DNA of 5,051 bases from the IMG/VR virus record IMGVR_UViG_2645727562_000017, one strand, 5' to 3'. Source of the DNA: a virus. Taxonomy: Duplodnaviria; Heunggongvirae; Uroviricota; Caudoviricetes. Below, piece after piece: positions 1 through 4,895 of this stretch; position 1 is the first letter of the stretch; each line of letters starts with the position of its first letter. The translations under genes were made by a program, and so were the position numbers. Under the pieces are notes generated by a model, which saw only the letters and a list, made by a program, of their open reading frames with translations, was not told the DNA's origin and made no database searches.

Positions 1-1046
1 ACCGCGAGCGCCTCGCCGTAATGCTCATAGATACGCATGGCCTTTTCGCTGGTACTCATGGCGGAAAACTCCGCTTCGCTCATGGTGTCGAACGGGCTTT
101 CAGCCGGTGGCCGGATGGCATCATAAATGGCCTTACGGGTGGCTTCCCCGCCGTACTGCGTGAAGGCATCATTCCAGTCACCGAAGACCGGCGGCAGGGC
201 AACAACACCTTCACACGCATCTGCGGCTGCGGCGGCTTTTTTCTGGCCGTCACCGCTGAGGTCACGGTCAGCAGCAAGGACAATCTGACAGGCCGGATGC
301 TTCTGCCGGGCAAGGCTGGCCAGAGAAAGGAGGTTCACGGAAGAAAGCGCCACCATCACCGTTTCACCGGTCAGGTGATGCACGGTAAGTGCGGTCGCGT
401 ATCCCTCCGCTATCCACAGACGTTTTCCGGCCTGATTCTGTCCTTCAAGGGTGTGACAGGTGCCCCTGACCTGTCCGCCTTTCAGGGTGCGCTTACGGCC
501 GTCAGCACTGATTAACTGAAGGTTAACCAGTTCGCCGCTGTCGTCATACAGTGGCACCACAAGGTCACCGGCACGCCAGCTCACGCCACCGGCTCTGTGT
601 GTGCCGGTCAGCATCCGGCATTCCCGGCCGGGAAAGCCCTTGCGGGTCAGGTAGGCGTTACCGGTTCCGGGACGGGTTTTCGCCATCAGGGTTTGTGCCA
701 GTGCGGCGGCGTTCTTCCGGGCAGCGTCTGTTTCAGCAACGGCGGCAGCCGTCACTGCCGGGTCAGCCGGGGGCAGACTGCCGGTCACGGCAGCCACCTT
801 TGCGGCCGCGTCGGACGGGGAGACACCAAACACCTTTTCAACCAGTTTCAGGCCGTCACCGGCACCACACTGATTGCAGTACCAGGTGCCGCGCCCCTCC
901 CTGTCATCAAAACGGAAGCGGTCACTCCCGCCACAGACCGGACAGGGCTGATGACGGTTTTTCAGCACCTGAATCCCCAGCGCCGGGAGAATACGCGGCC
1001 AGTGGCCGAGCGCATGGCTGACGGTGGCGGTTACGTTCATTTTCAT
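1..1046 (-). CDS. alpha: P4 alpha-type replication protein (primase-helicase), N-terminal ~348 aa only; gene continues beyond the window's left edge
   Basis: Minus-strand frame open from ATG at 1046 to position 1, preceded by GAAGGAGAA Shine-Dalgarno (rc of 1052-1060). Translation begins MKMNVTATVSHALGHWPRILPALGIQVLKNRHQPCPVCGGSDRFRFDDREGRGTWYCNQCG (CxxC...CxxC zinc motif), later WIAEGYATAL and LAADRDLSGDG (TOPRIM-like acidic motifs). Not in the ORF track, probably because it is incomplete. Plus-strand ORFs here are antisense to it. Confidence 0.88.
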   Translation of the reverse strand, partial: MKMNVTATVSHALGHWPRILPALGIQVLKNRHQPCPVCGGSDRFRFDDREGRGTWYCNQCGAGDGLKLVEKVFGVSPSDAAAKVAAVTGSLPPADPAVTAAAVAETDAARKNAAALAQTLMAKTRPGTGNAYLTRKGFPGRECRMLTGTHRAGGVSWRAGDLVVPLYDDSGELVNLQLISADGRKRTLKGGQVRGTCHTLEGQNQAGKRLWIAEGYATALTVHHLTGETVMVALSSVNLLSLASLARQKHPACQIVLAADRDLSGDGQKKAAAAADACEGVVALPPVFGDWNDAFTQYGGEATRKAIYDAIRPPAESPFDTMSEAEFSAMSTSEKAMRIYEHYGEALA

Positions 1047-1060
1047 GGTGTTGTTCTCCT

Positions 1061-1381
1061 TCAGTGCAGTACCGGCGCTTTTATGTGACGGGCACAGAGT
1101 TCATCCATCACAACCAGCCCGAGAAAGGACAGCGACGGCGCGGCCTTCAGGGGGCCGGATTCCATTAAATCTTCCAGCAGGGCACAGGCTATCTGACGCC
1201 CTTTTTCCTCACCGTGCTGGCGCAGATAAAAGCCTTCCAGCTCAGCGGCGATGGCCGCCTCCAGTGACTCAAGGGTGAGATGCGGGTAGCGGTGCTGACG
1301 TTCGCACACGGTCAGCCAGGCACAGGCGACAGCGCGACGGTAAAGGGCAGCGCGTAAGACGGGCGGTAAGGGTGTTTTCAT
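1061..1381 (-). CDS. Hypothetical 106-aa protein of the left operon (P4 orf106-like), immediately upstream of alpha
   Basis: ORF track 1061..1381 (-), 106 aa. Strong RBS GGGAGGAAAACAA before the ATG (rc of 1382-1395). Ends 14 nt before the alpha start. No recognisable motif. Confidence 0.7.
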
Positions 1382-1516: not shown

Positions 1517-1972
1517 TTACAGATAATTGCGGTAACTGTTATCCGGGGTGATTTCCGGGTCAGGCTCCGTGCGGGGAATTTCCCGCCATTCCCGCGCCAC
1601 CGGTGCCGCCCGGCTGACCGGAACAGGGTCCTGCGGGTAAATATCCAGATATTTCTCCCGCCATTTCTGTAATTCCGGGTCTCCGGCAATTTCTTTCAGT
1701 ACCGCATGCCGGTTTACGGGGCTGCGTTTAAACAGGTCAGGACGGTCACAGGTAAATTCCCGCAGAAAACGCCCCAGCGGGATGTCTGTGGTGCGTCCGT
1801 CAGCGAGGATACGCACAAGGATACTGAATTTACGGCGGTACGGGTTCCAGACAATGTCCGGGCAGCGGTACGGCATTTCCCACGGAATACCGTCTTCCAG
1901 AATGCCGACCACGGCCACATCGGGAAAACCGGCAGAACGGTAAATCTCACCGGGCTGGGGAAAATCAAACAT
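1517..1972 (-). CDS. Hypothetical 151-aa protein of the left operon (P4 orf151-like)
   Basis: ORF track 1517..1972 (-), 151 aa. Its ATG overlaps the stop of the upstream epsilon-like ORF (1965-1972), suggesting translational coupling. Function not inferable from sequence. Confidence 0.75.
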   Translation of the reverse strand: MFDFPQPGEIYRSAGFPDVAVVGILEDGIPWEMPYRCPDIVWNPYRRKFSILVRILADGRTTDIPLGRFLREFTCDRPDLFKRSPVNRHAVLKEIAGDPELQKWREKYLDIYPQDPVPVSRAAPVAREWREIPRTEPDPEITPDNSYRNYL

Positions 1973-2252
1973 GCGTCCTGTCTCCCCGGTCTTTCTGCTG
2001 GGCGAGAAAATCGCGGCACAGGCCTTTGGCTTTCAGCTCATTCAGCACAAAATCAATATCTTCATTCAGGTAGCTGAAAATATGCGGAATGTAGAGCTGA
2101 TGCAGGCCGGAGAGTTCACGGTGAATCAAATCACCCCCAACAAACTGGGATACGGCGCTGGCGCGGTTGAGCTTATGGTAAGCCTCAATGCTGAGGTGTT
2201 CACGGGCGTCATGACGCGCTGAGACGGTCTGAGGGGCTTTTTTATTACGCAC
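1965..2252 (-). CDS. epsilon: Epsilon-like protein (P4 derepression factor candidate), 95 aa from a GTG start
   Basis: Track ORF 1965..2408 (147 aa) has an implausible Cys/Pro/Val-rich N-terminus overlapping kil out of frame. An in-frame GTG at 2252 is preceded by GGAGGTG (rc of 2258-2264) and gives 95 aa ([30 protein letters not shown]...). Position (after kil, before orf151) and size fit P4 epsilon as I recall it; identity not verified. Confidence 0.55.
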
Positions 2253-2496: not shown

Positions 2497-2693
2497 TCGA
2501 TGGCGATAGCCCAGACGGGGGTAAGAATACCGGCCTCGAACGAATACCGGCCAGCCCGGAGGCTGCCCCGCCTGAGCTACCATTGACTCAGCGGCATAAC
2601 AAGCGAACGCGAACAGGATGCACGGAATGCCACCTGCACGACAAACCACACACCACACCATAATCTGGCGCTCTGTGGCGTTGATTGCGACAC
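2497..2693 (-). ncRNA. cI: Approximate location of the P4-type immunity RNA (cI-like) within the untranslated PLE leader; exact ends not determined
   Basis: About 250 nt between promoter and kil with no convincing protein gene. The leftward transcript has several GC-rich hairpins (CUGAG-N10-CUCAG; CAGCC-UCCG-GGCUG; paired GGCCGG elements), consistent with a processed structured RNA. The track's 90-aa ORF 2476..2748 lies here and is unlikely to be a real gene. I could not locate the complementary seqB segment by eye. Confidence 0.3.
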
Positions 2694-2715
2694 AAAAAAA
2701 GACGCATGGCGCGTC
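2694..2715 (-). terminator. Candidate intrinsic terminator/attenuator in the PLE leader
   Basis: Leftward transcript reads GACGCG-CCA-UGCGUC followed by UUUUUUU (plus-strand A7 at 2694-2700; stem from plus 2701-2715). Short 5-6 bp stem, so probably weak. Confidence 0.35.
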
Positions 2716-2723
2716 ATATGTCG

Positions 2724-2750
2724 CCGTTAGAGTTACACGGGTTCCCACGC
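2724..2750 (-). promoter_or_regulatory. Upstream copy of the bipartite direct repeat (candidate seqA-type target) in the 5' leader of the PLE transcript
   Basis: CCGTTAGAGT (2724-2733) + 7 nt + GTTCCCACGC (2741-2750). Same two boxes as at 2454-2496 but with a 7-nt rather than 23-nt spacer. Confidence 0.45.
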
Positions 2751-2753
2751 CCG

Positions 2754-2809
2754 GCTGCCGATTTTGCGGCAGCGGAAAAACTATATCCGCAAATGCCGGA
2801 AAAAGGCAA
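2754..2809 (-). promoter_or_regulatory. Sigma70-type promoter for the leftward immunity/early transcript (PLE-like), with a perfect inverted repeat at the predicted start
   Basis: Minus strand: -35 TTGCCT (2809-2804), 18-nt spacer, -10 TATAGT (2785-2780). Immediately downstream is GCTGCCG-ATTTTG-CGGCAGC (2754-2773), a 7-bp perfect inverted repeat. Lies about 40-65 nt downstream of the vis stop. Confidence 0.5.
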
Positions 2810-2844: not shown

Positions 2845-3111
2845 TCATGCGTCGTACCCCCGTTTGCGTCCGGCAATGCGCCCGGCCATCCATGCGGTGA
2901 CTTCAGAGTGCAGCCAGGCCACATTTTTACCGCCAAGACTCACCTGCGGCGGAAATTCCCCCTTACGGATGAGTTCATAGATGGTCGAGCGTGACAGGCC
3001 GCACAGGTGCATCACTTCCGGCAGACGTAAAAAACGCTCCTGCGTGATGTCCGGCAGCGGCATCAGTGGCGTCACAGGGGCGGGAGACGGGGAAGAAAAA
3101 ACAGCTTGCAT
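2845..3111 (-). CDS. vis: AlpA/Vis-family small DNA-binding regulator (P4 Vis-like; late-promoter regulator / excision factor), 88 aa
   Basis: ORF track 2845..3111 (-), 88 aa. GAGGT Shine-Dalgarno 7 nt upstream. Contains the AlpA-type helix-turn-helix signature LSRSTIYELIRKGEFPPQVSLGGKNVAWLHSEV. First gene downstream of the leftward late promoter. Confidence 0.8.
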   Translation of the reverse strand: MQAVFSSPSPAPVTPLMPLPDITQERFLRLPEVMHLCGLSRSTIYELIRKGEFPPQVSLGGKNVAWLHSEVTAWMAGRIAGRKRGYDA

Positions 3112-3164
3112 CGGGCTACCTCGTTAATGTCCATACAGCACCGGATAAGTCCGTCCGGCTTCGG

Positions 3165-3231
3165 GTAGCGCTTTATTTTGTGAATATTTTCAGCAGACGC
3201 AACAGGGGGAATTTGTTCCGGCAACCTTACA
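3165..3231 (-). promoter_or_regulatory. Leftward late promoter (PLL-like) with Ogr/Delta-type activator dyad
   Basis: TGT-N12-ACA at 3214-3231 (TGTtccggcaaccttACA). No -35. A CACAAA element about 40 nt away on the minus strand (3182-3177) parallels the CACAAT of the rightward promoter. Predicted start near 3167, about 55 nt upstream of vis. Confidence 0.6.
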
Positions 3232-3346
3232 ATGCCTGTGTATTTTTTATCCATCCCCACTGAAAGGCACTCAAAGCCACCTAAAGCAACTCGAAATTTT
3301 TATAGTGAAATACAAATCGTTTTTTCTTATTCATTCCCAGCGAATT

Positions 3347-3520
3347 AATAAAAACAAACAGTAATAAACAGCACAAAAAGCCCATCAACGGGTGAACAGT
3401 GGTGAACAGACGGTGAACAGTCATTACTGCGATTGTTCACCCTTTAACTTACTGTATTACTTATCTTTTTTCTTATGGTGAACAGAGGTGAACAGTAAAA
3501 TATAAAAAAACAAACAGTAA
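3347..3520. repeat. Iteron cluster in an AT-rich region (P4 crr-like cis replication element; predicted binding sites for the alpha C-terminal domain)
   Basis: Octamer GGTGAACA (rc TGTTCACC) at 3391-3398, 3401-3408, 3412-3419, 3477-3484, 3487-3494 (10-11 bp phasing) plus one inverted copy TGTTCACC at 3434-3441. Flanked by a 15-bp direct repeat AAAAACAAACAGTAA at 3350-3364 and 3506-3520. Many AACAG pentamers; adjacent AT-rich tract 3250-3370. Confidence 0.72.
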
Positions 3521-3573
3521 GCCGGTTTTTCCTGCGACCTTTTCCTGGCTTGCCGGTCTGAGGATGAGTCTCC

Positions 3574-3640
3574 TGTGTCAGGGCTGGCACATCTGCAATG
3601 CGTCGTGTTGTTGTCCGGTGTACGTCACAATTTTCTTAAC
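3574..3640 (+). promoter_or_regulatory. Rightward late promoter (Psid-like) with Ogr/Delta-type activator dyad
   Basis: TGT-N12-ACA at 3574-3591 (TGTgtcagggctggcACA). No -35. -10-like CACAAT at 3626-3631. Predicted start near 3638, 26 nt before the sid ATG. Confidence 0.62.
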
Positions 3641-3663
3641 CTGAAGTGACGAGGAGCCGGAAA

Positions 3664-4398
3664 ATGTCTGACAACACCATCCCTGAATATCTGCAACCCG
3701 CACTGGCACAACTGGAAAAGGCCAGAGCCGCCCACCTTGAGAACGCCCGACTGATGGATGAGACCGTCACGGCCATTGAACGGGCAGAGCAGGAAAAAAA
3801 TGCGCTGGCGCAGGCCGACGGAAACGACGCTGACGACTGGCGCACGGCCTTTCGTGCAGCCGGTGGTGTCCTGAGCGACGAGCTGAAACAGCGCCACATT
3901 GAGCGCGTGGCACGCCGGGAACTGGTACAGGAATATGACAATCTGGCCGTGGTGCTGAATTTTGAACGCGAACGCCTGAAAGGGGCGTGTGACAGCACGG
4001 CCACCGCCTACCGGAAGGCACATCATCACCTGCTGAGTCTGTATGCAGAGCATGAGCTGGAACACGCCCTGAATGAAACCTGTGAGGCGCTTGTCCGGGC
4101 AATGCATCTGAGCATCCTGGTACAGGAAAATCCGCTCGCCAACACCACCGGCCATCAGGGCTACGTCGCACCGGAAAAGGCTGTCATGCAGCAGGTGAAA
4201 TCATCGCTGGAACAGAAAATAAAACAGATGCAAATCAGCCTCACCGGCGAGCCGGTTCTCCGGCTGACCGGACTGTCAGCGGCAACACTCCCGCACATGG
4301 ATTATGAGGTGGCAGGCACACCGGCACAGCGCAAGGTGTGGCAGGACAAAATAGACCAGCAGGGAGCAGTGCTTAAGGCCAGAGGACTGCTGTCATGA
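3664..4398 (+). CDS. sid: Sid, capsid size-determination (external scaffold) protein, 244 aa
   Basis: Track ORF 3646..4398 starts at a GTG without an RBS. The ATG at 3664 has GAGGAG 7 nt upstream and gives 244 aa beginning MSDNTIPEYLQPALAQLEKARAAHLENARLMDET, which matches what I recall of P4 Sid. Stop overlaps the delta start (ATGA at 4395-4398). Confidence 0.9.
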   Translation: MSDNTIPEYLQPALAQLEKARAAHLENARLMDETVTAIERAEQEKNALAQADGNDADDWRTAFRAAGGVLSDELKQRHIERVARRELVQEYDNLAVVLNFERERLKGACDSTATAYRKAHHHLLSLYAEHELEHALNETCEALVRAMHLSILVQENPLANTTGHQGYVAPEKAVMQQVKSSLEQKIKQMQISLTGEPVLRLTGLSAATLPHMDYEVAGTPAQRKVWQDKIDQQGAVLKARGLLS

Positions 4399-4895
4399 TT
4401 TACTGCCCGTCGTGTGGACATGTTGCTCACACCCGTCGCGCACATTTCATGGACGATGGCACCAAGATAATGATTGCACAGTGCCGGAATATTTATTGCT
4501 CTGCGACATTTGAAGCGAGTGAAAGCTTTTTCTCTGACTGTAAAGATTCAGGAATGGAATACATTTCAGGCAAACAGAGATACCGCGATTCACTGACGTC
4601 AGCCTCCGGCAGTATGAAACGCCCGAAAAGAATGCTTGTTACCGGATATTGTTGTCGGAGATGTAAAGGCCTTGCACTGTCAAGAACATCGCGGCGTCTG
4701 TCTCAGGAAGTCACCGAGCGTTTTTATGTGTGCACGGATCCGGGCTGTGGTCTGGTGTTTAAAACGCTTCAGACCATCAACCGTTTCATTGTCCGCCCGG
4801 TCACGCCGGACGAACTGGCAGAAAGCCTGCATGAAAAACAGGAACTGCCGCCAGTACGCTTAAAAACACAATCATATTCGCTGCGTCTGGAATGA
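4395..4895 (+). CDS. delta: Delta, late-gene transcriptional activator; tandem duplication of an Ogr-type zinc finger, 166 aa
   Basis: ORF track 4395..4895 (+), 166 aa. Two copies of C-X2-C-X22-C-X4-C: CPSC...CRNIYC in the first half and CRRC...CTDPGC in the second, the Ogr/Delta hallmark. Confidence 0.9.
   Translation: MIYCPSCGHVAHTRRAHFMDDGTKIMIAQCRNIYCSATFEASESFFSDCKDSGMEYISGKQRYRDSLTSASGSMKRPKRMLVTGYCCRRCKGLALSRTSRRLSQEVTERFYVCTDPGCGLVFKTLQTINRFIVRPVTPDELAESLHEKQELPPVRLKTQSYSLRLE

Follow-up and report, generated by a model that had tools for sequence, protein, structure and literature searches.

How is a cluster of short, evenly spaced repeats between two divergent late promoters to be read: as chance or a small CRISPR array, as a set of operators, or as the binding sites of a replication initiator, and if the last, which of the initiator's sites? 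The question is raised by positions 3347-3520 of a 5,051-nucleotide stretch of viral DNA (IMG/VR record IMGVR_UViG_2645727562_000017; hereafter, the window). The first-pass annotation of this DNA had proposed that the repeats are phased iterons for the C-terminal domain of the alpha protein and form a crr-like replication element. In bacteriophage P4, alpha unites a DnaG-type primase, an SF3 helicase and a winged helix in one polypeptide (PMC2777425), and this primase-helicase is essential for P4 replication (PMC8628076). Alpha binding and alpha-dependent replication of ori with crr in cis are established for P4 itself (PMC4234260).

Results

Identity and gene content of the window

Megablast against phage records aligned the window to bacteriophage P4 (X51522 / NC_001609, 5924-10970) with 97.8% identity and 100% coverage, and the gene order alpha-ORF106-ORF151-epsilon-cI region-ORF88-iterons-sid-delta-psu is collinear with X51522. 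Judged by this similarity, the source of the window is a P4-type satellite prophage. The genes, named from the P4 annotation and Pfam, and the RNA features, matched in Rfam at gathering score, are as follows.

3..1046, minus strand: 5' part of alpha, the trans-acting initiator (residues 1-348), zinc ribbon and Toprim primase (Pfam Zn_Ribbon_Prim, Toprim_3)
1061..1381, minus strand: ORF106 (cnr); P4 ORF106 orthologue, Pfam DUF5375 (2.9e-63)
1517-1972, minus strand: ORF151
1965-2252, minus strand: epsilon, 'Derepression' family
2499-2587, minus strand: C4 antisense RNA (P4 CI immunity RNA), Rfam
2695-2773, minus strand: isrK, Rfam
2734-2786, minus strand: a1/b1 target of C4 (a1b1), Rfam
2845-3111, minus strand: ORF88/vis, AlpA family
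3664-4398, plus strand: sid
4395-4895, plus strand: delta, Ogr_Delta
4969 onwards, plus strand: start of psu

The C4, isrK and a1/b1 matches mark the RNA-based immunity region that a P4-type element is expected to have downstream of PLE. Residues 1-348 of alpha in the window are 99% identical to P4 alpha; the helicase and C-terminal origin-binding domains, as well as crr, lie beyond the left end of the window. The prophage could be defective; in the closest full-length relatives (for example L025), alpha is intact and 98% identical to P4 alpha. Two mechanically called ORFs that overlap the repeats (47 aa, 3281-3424, and 48 aa, 3444-3590, both on the minus strand) were rejected as genes: P4 has no annotation for them, and conservation across them comes in blocks that follow the iterons and shows no codon-like pattern.

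The octamer array

The 5051-bp window holds six exact copies of the octamer GGTGAACA/TGTTCACC, none of them outside 3347-3520. Five copies are direct, each with the full form GGTGAACAG(T/A), and one is inverted.

3391..3398, plus strand: type I iteron 1, GGTGAACA, exact match; P4 'ori type 1 repeat' 9310-9317
3401..3408, plus strand: type I iteron 2, exact match; P4 9320-9327
3412..3419, plus strand: type I iteron 3, exact match; P4 9331-9338
3434..3441, minus strand: type I iteron 4, the sole inverted copy (TGTTCACC); P4 9353-9360, in opposite orientation there too
3477..3484, plus strand: type I iteron 5, exact match; P4 9396-9403
3487..3494, plus strand: type I iteron 6, exact match; P4 9406-9413

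Dinucleotide-preserving shuffles of the window (n = 200) gave an expectation of 0.17 ± 0.42 copies, and none of the 200 reached six, so that the five direct and one inverted octamers of the first-pass annotation are borne out by both position and statistics. Start-to-start distances are 10, 11, 22, 43 and 10 bp, corresponding to 1, 1, 2, 4 and 1 helical turns, with phase offsets within ∼2 bp modulo 10.5 bp and within ∼0.75 bp modulo 10.75 bp; given these offsets, helical phasing was a fair description. Iterons 3 and 4 together make up an inverted repeat (3412-3441) with an 11-bp stem and an 8-nt loop. Their 22-bp spacing is kept in nearly all relatives, and these head-to-head iterons may form a distinct alpha-dimer binding unit.

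Short and regularly spaced as the repeats are, and with a terminator-like hairpin flagged at 3412-3441, they could be put down to chance low complexity, to a small CRISPR array, to the ends of a transposon or to a terminator hairpin. We give this practically no credence. Six copies were reached in 0 of 200 shuffles, and the layout persists across a family whose Sid is down to 25% identity. The unit of 8-10 bp with 'spacers' of 2-3 bp does not resemble CRISPR repeats of about 24-48 bp with unique spacers of similar length, nor are there terminal inverted repeats around a transposase; the first-pass annotation had itself set both of these possibilities aside, and unit size and the missing terminal inverted repeats uphold it. 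As for a terminator at 3412-3441, the arms are iterons 3 and 4, the loop is poorly conserved (0.53), and the tail falls short of a clean run of T.

Correspondence to the P4 origin rather than to crr

In X51522, the intergenic region between ORF88 and sid bears a rep_origin feature, 'origin of DNA replication' (9086-9809), containing six 'ori type 1 repeats' at 9310, 9320, 9331, 9353, 9396 and 9406 in the orientation - - - + - -. The window octamers coincide one to one with these annotated repeats, which they match in order, orientation and spacing. Aligned pairwise over window 3100-3670, the window and P4 sequences are 98% identical without gaps. Within 3347-3520, 171 of 174 positions are identical, and the three substitutions relative to P4 (3364, A vs G; 3472, C vs A; 3476, T vs A) hit none of the iterons. 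Similarity to the P4 iterons, on which the first-pass annotation had staked its proposal, is accordingly present as near identity to ori. The window locus and P4 ori/ori1 are orthologous and alike in their flanks (ORF88/vis and sid), their six octamers and their 35-bp spacer. We therefore regard it as very nearly certain that 3391-3494 is a P4-type origin of vegetative and plasmid replication (ori/ori1), composed of the six iterons and the AT-rich spacer, and we found no evidence that contradicts this identification. By the same orthology, the octamers would be, as first proposed, replication iterons of the type to which P4 alpha binds through its C-terminal domain.

The label crr-like implies something else, namely that 3347-3520 is crr, or an auxiliary resembling it: an enhancer-like second cluster needed in cis and not the start site. 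Ori and crr are both alpha-binding iteron clusters with the octamer in common, and the P4 record calls the crr octamers 'ori type 1 repeat' too. They differ, however, in locus and architecture. P4 crr, annotated as 'cis required region for replication', occupies 4291-4590, with attP on one side and the terminator and stop codon of alpha on the other; 3347-3520 is found in the ORF88-sid interval, on the opposite side of the early operon and about 2.3 kb upstream of where alpha starts. Two direct repeats of 120 bp make up P4 crr, and each contains five octamers in the order + + - - +, several of them imperfect; the array in the window reads +++-++, and its iterons are all exact. No 120-bp duplication is present in the window, where the longest direct repeats are 19-22 nt. 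When window 3340-3525 was aligned (MAFFT) with both crr repeats in both orientations, only the octamers aligned, with 49% mean column identity and large gaps; the octamer word is all that the segment and crr have in common. Moreover, full-length relatives have a separate crr-like cluster past the alpha stop codon in addition to the ori cluster. In L025, the closest among the full-length relatives retrieved (98.3% identity over the window, which aligns to its positions 2317-7362), crr-type octamers are found at 706-962, which places crr ∼1.35 kb beyond the left end of the window. That the segment is crr or an equivalent of it is thus extremely improbable, and the label has to be withdrawn, as the orthologous P4 stretch is annotated as the replication origin. 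The earlier reading was correct on the protein and on the type of site but, of the two iteron clusters in P4, named the wrong one.

The differences between the window and P4 cluster at 3210-3296, with about 26 in 87 bp vs 5 in the next 370 bp. This divergence spans the spacer of a dyad on the PLL side (below) and the type 2 repeats of the origin region.

3257..3286, plus strand: ori type 2 repeats, three tandem 10-bp units (CCACTGAAAG / GCACTCAAAG / CCACCTAAAG), orthologous to P4 9176-9205

The P4 counterparts of these units read CCACTTAAAG/TCATTTAAAG/CCACTTAAAG. Between the window and P4, the sequence of the type 2 repeats drifts while their repeat character is retained; across the P4-like family their identity is 0.375.

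AT-rich spacer and flanking repeats

GC content is 32-41% over 3250-3550 vs 55% in the whole window, in agreement with the AT-rich tract that had been described. The remaining elements within it are listed here.

3442..3476: AT-rich spacer between iterons 4 and 5, 35 bp, 20% GC, CTTTAACTTACTGTATTACTTATCTTTTTTCTTAT
3350..3364, plus strand: 15-bp A-rich repeat, left copy, AAAAACAAACAGTAA, exact repeat
3506..3520, plus strand: 15-bp A-rich repeat, right copy, AAAAACAAACAGTAA, exact repeat

We infer that duplex opening takes place at the 3442-3476 spacer. The octamers were said to be embedded in AACAG pentamers, and this is the case: AACAG occurs eight times on the plus strand of 3347-3520, five times as the 3' part of GGTGAACAG and three times outside the iterons (3357, 3367 and 3513), while CTGTT has no occurrence in 3347-3520. 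By eye, no convincing match to a DnaA box or to the IHF consensus was seen around the iterons.

The 15-bp direct repeat was likewise correctly observed, being exact at both sites, and the pair can be extended to 22 nt at 86% identity. Its role as a boundary of the element fared less well, as the repeat is conserved only halfway: in relatives, the block containing the right copy (3495-3520) has an identity of 0.77 vs 0.54 for the left 15-bp copy, and this difference leaves a functional boundary unsupported. The stretch adjoining the left copy (3365-3390) has an identity of 0.22. The left copy (3350-3364) is probably dispensable.

Flanking late promoters

A dyad of the Delta/Ogr activator type lies on either side of the iterons; both dyads are neighbours of the origin and do not belong to it.

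3214..3231: TGT-N12-ACA dyad, PLL-type Delta/Ogr activator site upstream of ORF88/vis; found by pattern, position orthologous to P4
3574..3591: TGT-N12-ACA dyad, Psid-type activator site upstream of sid; found by pattern, identical to P4

The pattern occurs four times vs 1.1 expected, a count that by itself is not significant. On the PLL side, the ends of the dyad are kept relative to P4 and the spacer has diverged; on the Psid side, all 43 relatives have TGT and ACA unchanged. We take 3214-3231 and 3574-3591 to belong to PLL and Psid from general knowledge of P4 and P2 late promoters together with the orthology to P4. The placement of the iterons between a PLL-like and a Psid-like promoter therefore stands insofar as dyads are found on both sides, the promoter names resting on P4 orthology. 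A scan of 3050-3700 for sigma-70 consensus promoters returned no matches, which fits activator-dependent late promoters.

This setting invites the proposal that the octamers serve mainly as operators for Vis/AlpA, Delta or alpha at the late promoters, their role in an origin being secondary or absent. The cluster does lie between two activator-dependent promoters in a region empty of sigma-70 matches, and Polo et al. in 1996 are said to have found that Vis binds in the PLL region. However, the recognised Delta/Ogr dyads are separate from the iteron block, at about 160 bp and 80 bp from it. The octamer is also found where such promoters are not: downstream of alpha at the crr position, where a late promoter is absent, and right after the Pri-Rep gene of PICI-type satellites, without sid or vis-type late promoters there. 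Because it recurs at crr and at PICI origins, the octamer tracks the replication protein and not the promoters, and a mainly regulatory function is very unlikely; an origin remains our reading of the array.

Conservation among P4-like satellites

A region homologous to this one was found in 1069 of 5426 complete E. coli genomes, in up to 4 copies per genome, always in the chromosome and never on plasmids. In all E. coli matches listed, the ori intergenic region is left unannotated by PGAP/RefSeq.

A pattern scan of IMG/VR followed by typing with tblastn yielded 68 unique vis-proximal regions from P4-like elements, with Sid down to 25% identical to that of the window and alpha 74-87% identical to that of P4. 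The main layouts among them were '+++-++ 10,11,22,43,10' (n = 22) and '+++-+ 10,11,22,43' (n = 21). For a footprint alignment, 43 diverged, non-redundant P4-like regions (Sid 25-66% identical) were compared with the window. Mean identity was 1.00 for iteron 1, 0.997 for each of iterons 2 and 3, 0.968 for iteron 4, 0.988 for iteron 5 and 0.858 for iteron 6, the last being degenerate or absent in many diverged relatives (layout '+++-+'). The AT-rich spacer at 3442-3476 had a mean identity of 0.87, far above its flanks; in the 150 bp to the left of iteron 1, it was 0.22-0.54. The conservation of iterons 1-2 is partly built in by retrieval through a DNA pattern, a bias of which iterons 3-5 and the spacer are free.

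The bias was removed by retrieving loci with the Vis protein alone, which gave 80 loci, 79 of them scorable. The iteron cluster was present in 78 of the 79, its distance from the vis start codon being 266-291 bp; the exact layout of the window ('+++-++ 10,11,22,43,10') was seen in 58 of the 79. Such conservation gives separate evidence for the octamers as the functional units. The sole exception, L206 (IMGVR_UViG_3300046694_000516), has the same layout built from a one-base variant, TGTTCACT, which may be an iteron-specificity variant. At 1115-1225 of this record, where Vis is 74% identical, there is no exact TGTTCACC upstream of vis, and pairs of TGTTCACT lie 85 bp apart.

A search of genome contigs with Sid gave a single locus and little diversity. 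L003 (URND01000141.1, from the 'uncultured Clostridiales bacterium' MAG UMGS1151) is a 6.8-kb contig with a P4-type vis-ori-sid-delta arrangement (Sid 99% identical); its first iteron is mutated, leaving the layout '++-++'. This contig is almost certainly from an enterobacterial satellite that was placed in a Clostridiales bin by mistake.

Related octamers in PICI-type satellites

The octamer is not confined to P4-like elements. In a family of capsid-forming PICI-type satellites, for example L006 (5870-6100; NZ_CP024815.1, E. coli CREC-629), 8-9 exact GGTGAACA/TGTTCACC octamers sit directly after the stop codon of a 605-aa Pri-Rep, in two opposed sets around AT-rich DNA; comparable arrays are found in L010, L013, L014, L017, L021 and many other IMG/VR loci. 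Satellites of the L006 type encode an integrase, AlpA, an Icd-like protein, Pri-Rep, a capsid protein, a head decoration protein and a small terminase. The C-terminal 100 residues of P4 alpha (671-770) correspond to a solved crystal structure (PDB 1KA8), and the Pri-Rep C-terminus is 48% identical to this origin-binding domain.

Both the origins of Gram-negative PICI-type satellites (EcCICFT073-like pri-rep-ori) and P4 ori are of the iteron type with a primase-helicase initiator. They differ in that the N-terminal primase part of Pri-Rep is unlike alpha, similarity to alpha beginning at about residue 290-320, and in that the PICI origin has neither a separate crr nor the sid/vis context. PICI origins, including their two opposed iteron sets around AT-rich DNA, have been described before, with Pri-Rep proteins stressed as different from alpha (Fillol-Salom et al. 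2018; PMC6092414).

Discussion

The segment 3391-3494 is already known: it is a natural variant of the long-mapped P4 replication origin. Since P4 ori was mapped and dissected in the 1980s-1990s, there is little discovery value in the element as such. Naming it ori does correct a frequent mix-up of ori and crr, including the 'ccr' of PMC6092414. The Discussion of that paper calls the P4 site the 'cognate ori site (named ccr)', a wording that mixes ori and crr just as the first-pass annotation did, and such confusion seems common in the secondary literature.

The mechanism of initiation is established for P4; for the element in the window, it would follow from near identity. The winged-helix C-terminal domain of alpha would bind the TGTTCACC octamers, roughly on one face of the helix, and alpha would assemble at the origin together with the second iteron cluster, crr, downstream of alpha. 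Its helicase-primase would open the AT-rich spacer, unwind the duplex and lay primers, whereupon host polymerase III would carry out bidirectional theta replication without DnaA, DnaB or DnaG. Cnr (ORF106) would modulate the binding of alpha to the iterons and so limit copy number. The origin is sandwiched between divergent Delta/Ogr-activated promoters, PLL towards vis and Psid towards sid.

Earlier work on P4 is in keeping with such a scheme. P4 replication reportedly proceeds bidirectionally from ori and needs crr in cis (Krevolin in 1985, Flensburg and Calendar in 1987). Alpha is said to bind type I iterons in ori as well as in crr and to be able to loop the two together (Ziegelin in 1993), with the binding activity reportedly residing in its C-terminal third (Ziegelin in 1995). 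ORF106 is cnr, in P4 a copy-number regulator acting on alpha-iteron binding (Terzano in 1994, Ziegelin in 1997); Ziegelin in 1997 is said to have found that Cnr raises the affinity of alpha for the iterons and inhibits replication. The minimal ori1, according to what is reported of Tocchetti et al. in 1999, is 123 bp long, with an AT-rich region of 35 bp and six iterons spaced close to the helical period, and deletions of iterons or insertions of 6 or 10 bp reportedly inactivate it. The 35-bp, 20%-GC spacer of the window matches this reported AT-rich region.

The iteron origins of plasmids (pSC101, R6K, P1 and F) resemble P4 ori in having clustered, helically phased repeats beside an AT-rich unwinding element, and in negative copy-number control through the interaction of initiator and iterons. 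However, the P4 iterons are 8 bp long as compared with 17-22 bp in the plasmid origins, and the P4 origin is bipartite, consisting of ori and a distant crr. Unlike that of plasmid iteron origins, the P4 initiator is itself helicase and primase, and DnaA, DnaB and DnaG are not needed.

About a fifth of complete E. coli genomes carry a P4-like element, and the layout '+++-++ 10,11,22,43,10', located about 280 bp away from the start of vis/alpA, serves as a simple, reliable marker of a P4-like origin. Two further ideas, taken together, strike us as conceivable but unlikely. Alpha and Cnr on the iterons may tune PLL and Psid, or late transcription may activate the origin; in addition, P4-like and PICI-like satellites may recognise each other's origins. 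Because the octamer is common to P4 ori and the PICI origins, cross-talk between the two satellite families is possible. To our knowledge, neither the coupling of replication to the late promoters nor the cross-recognition of P4 and PICI origins is established in the literature. If satellites do cross-recognise each other's origins, the consequence would be replication interference or piracy within one cell.
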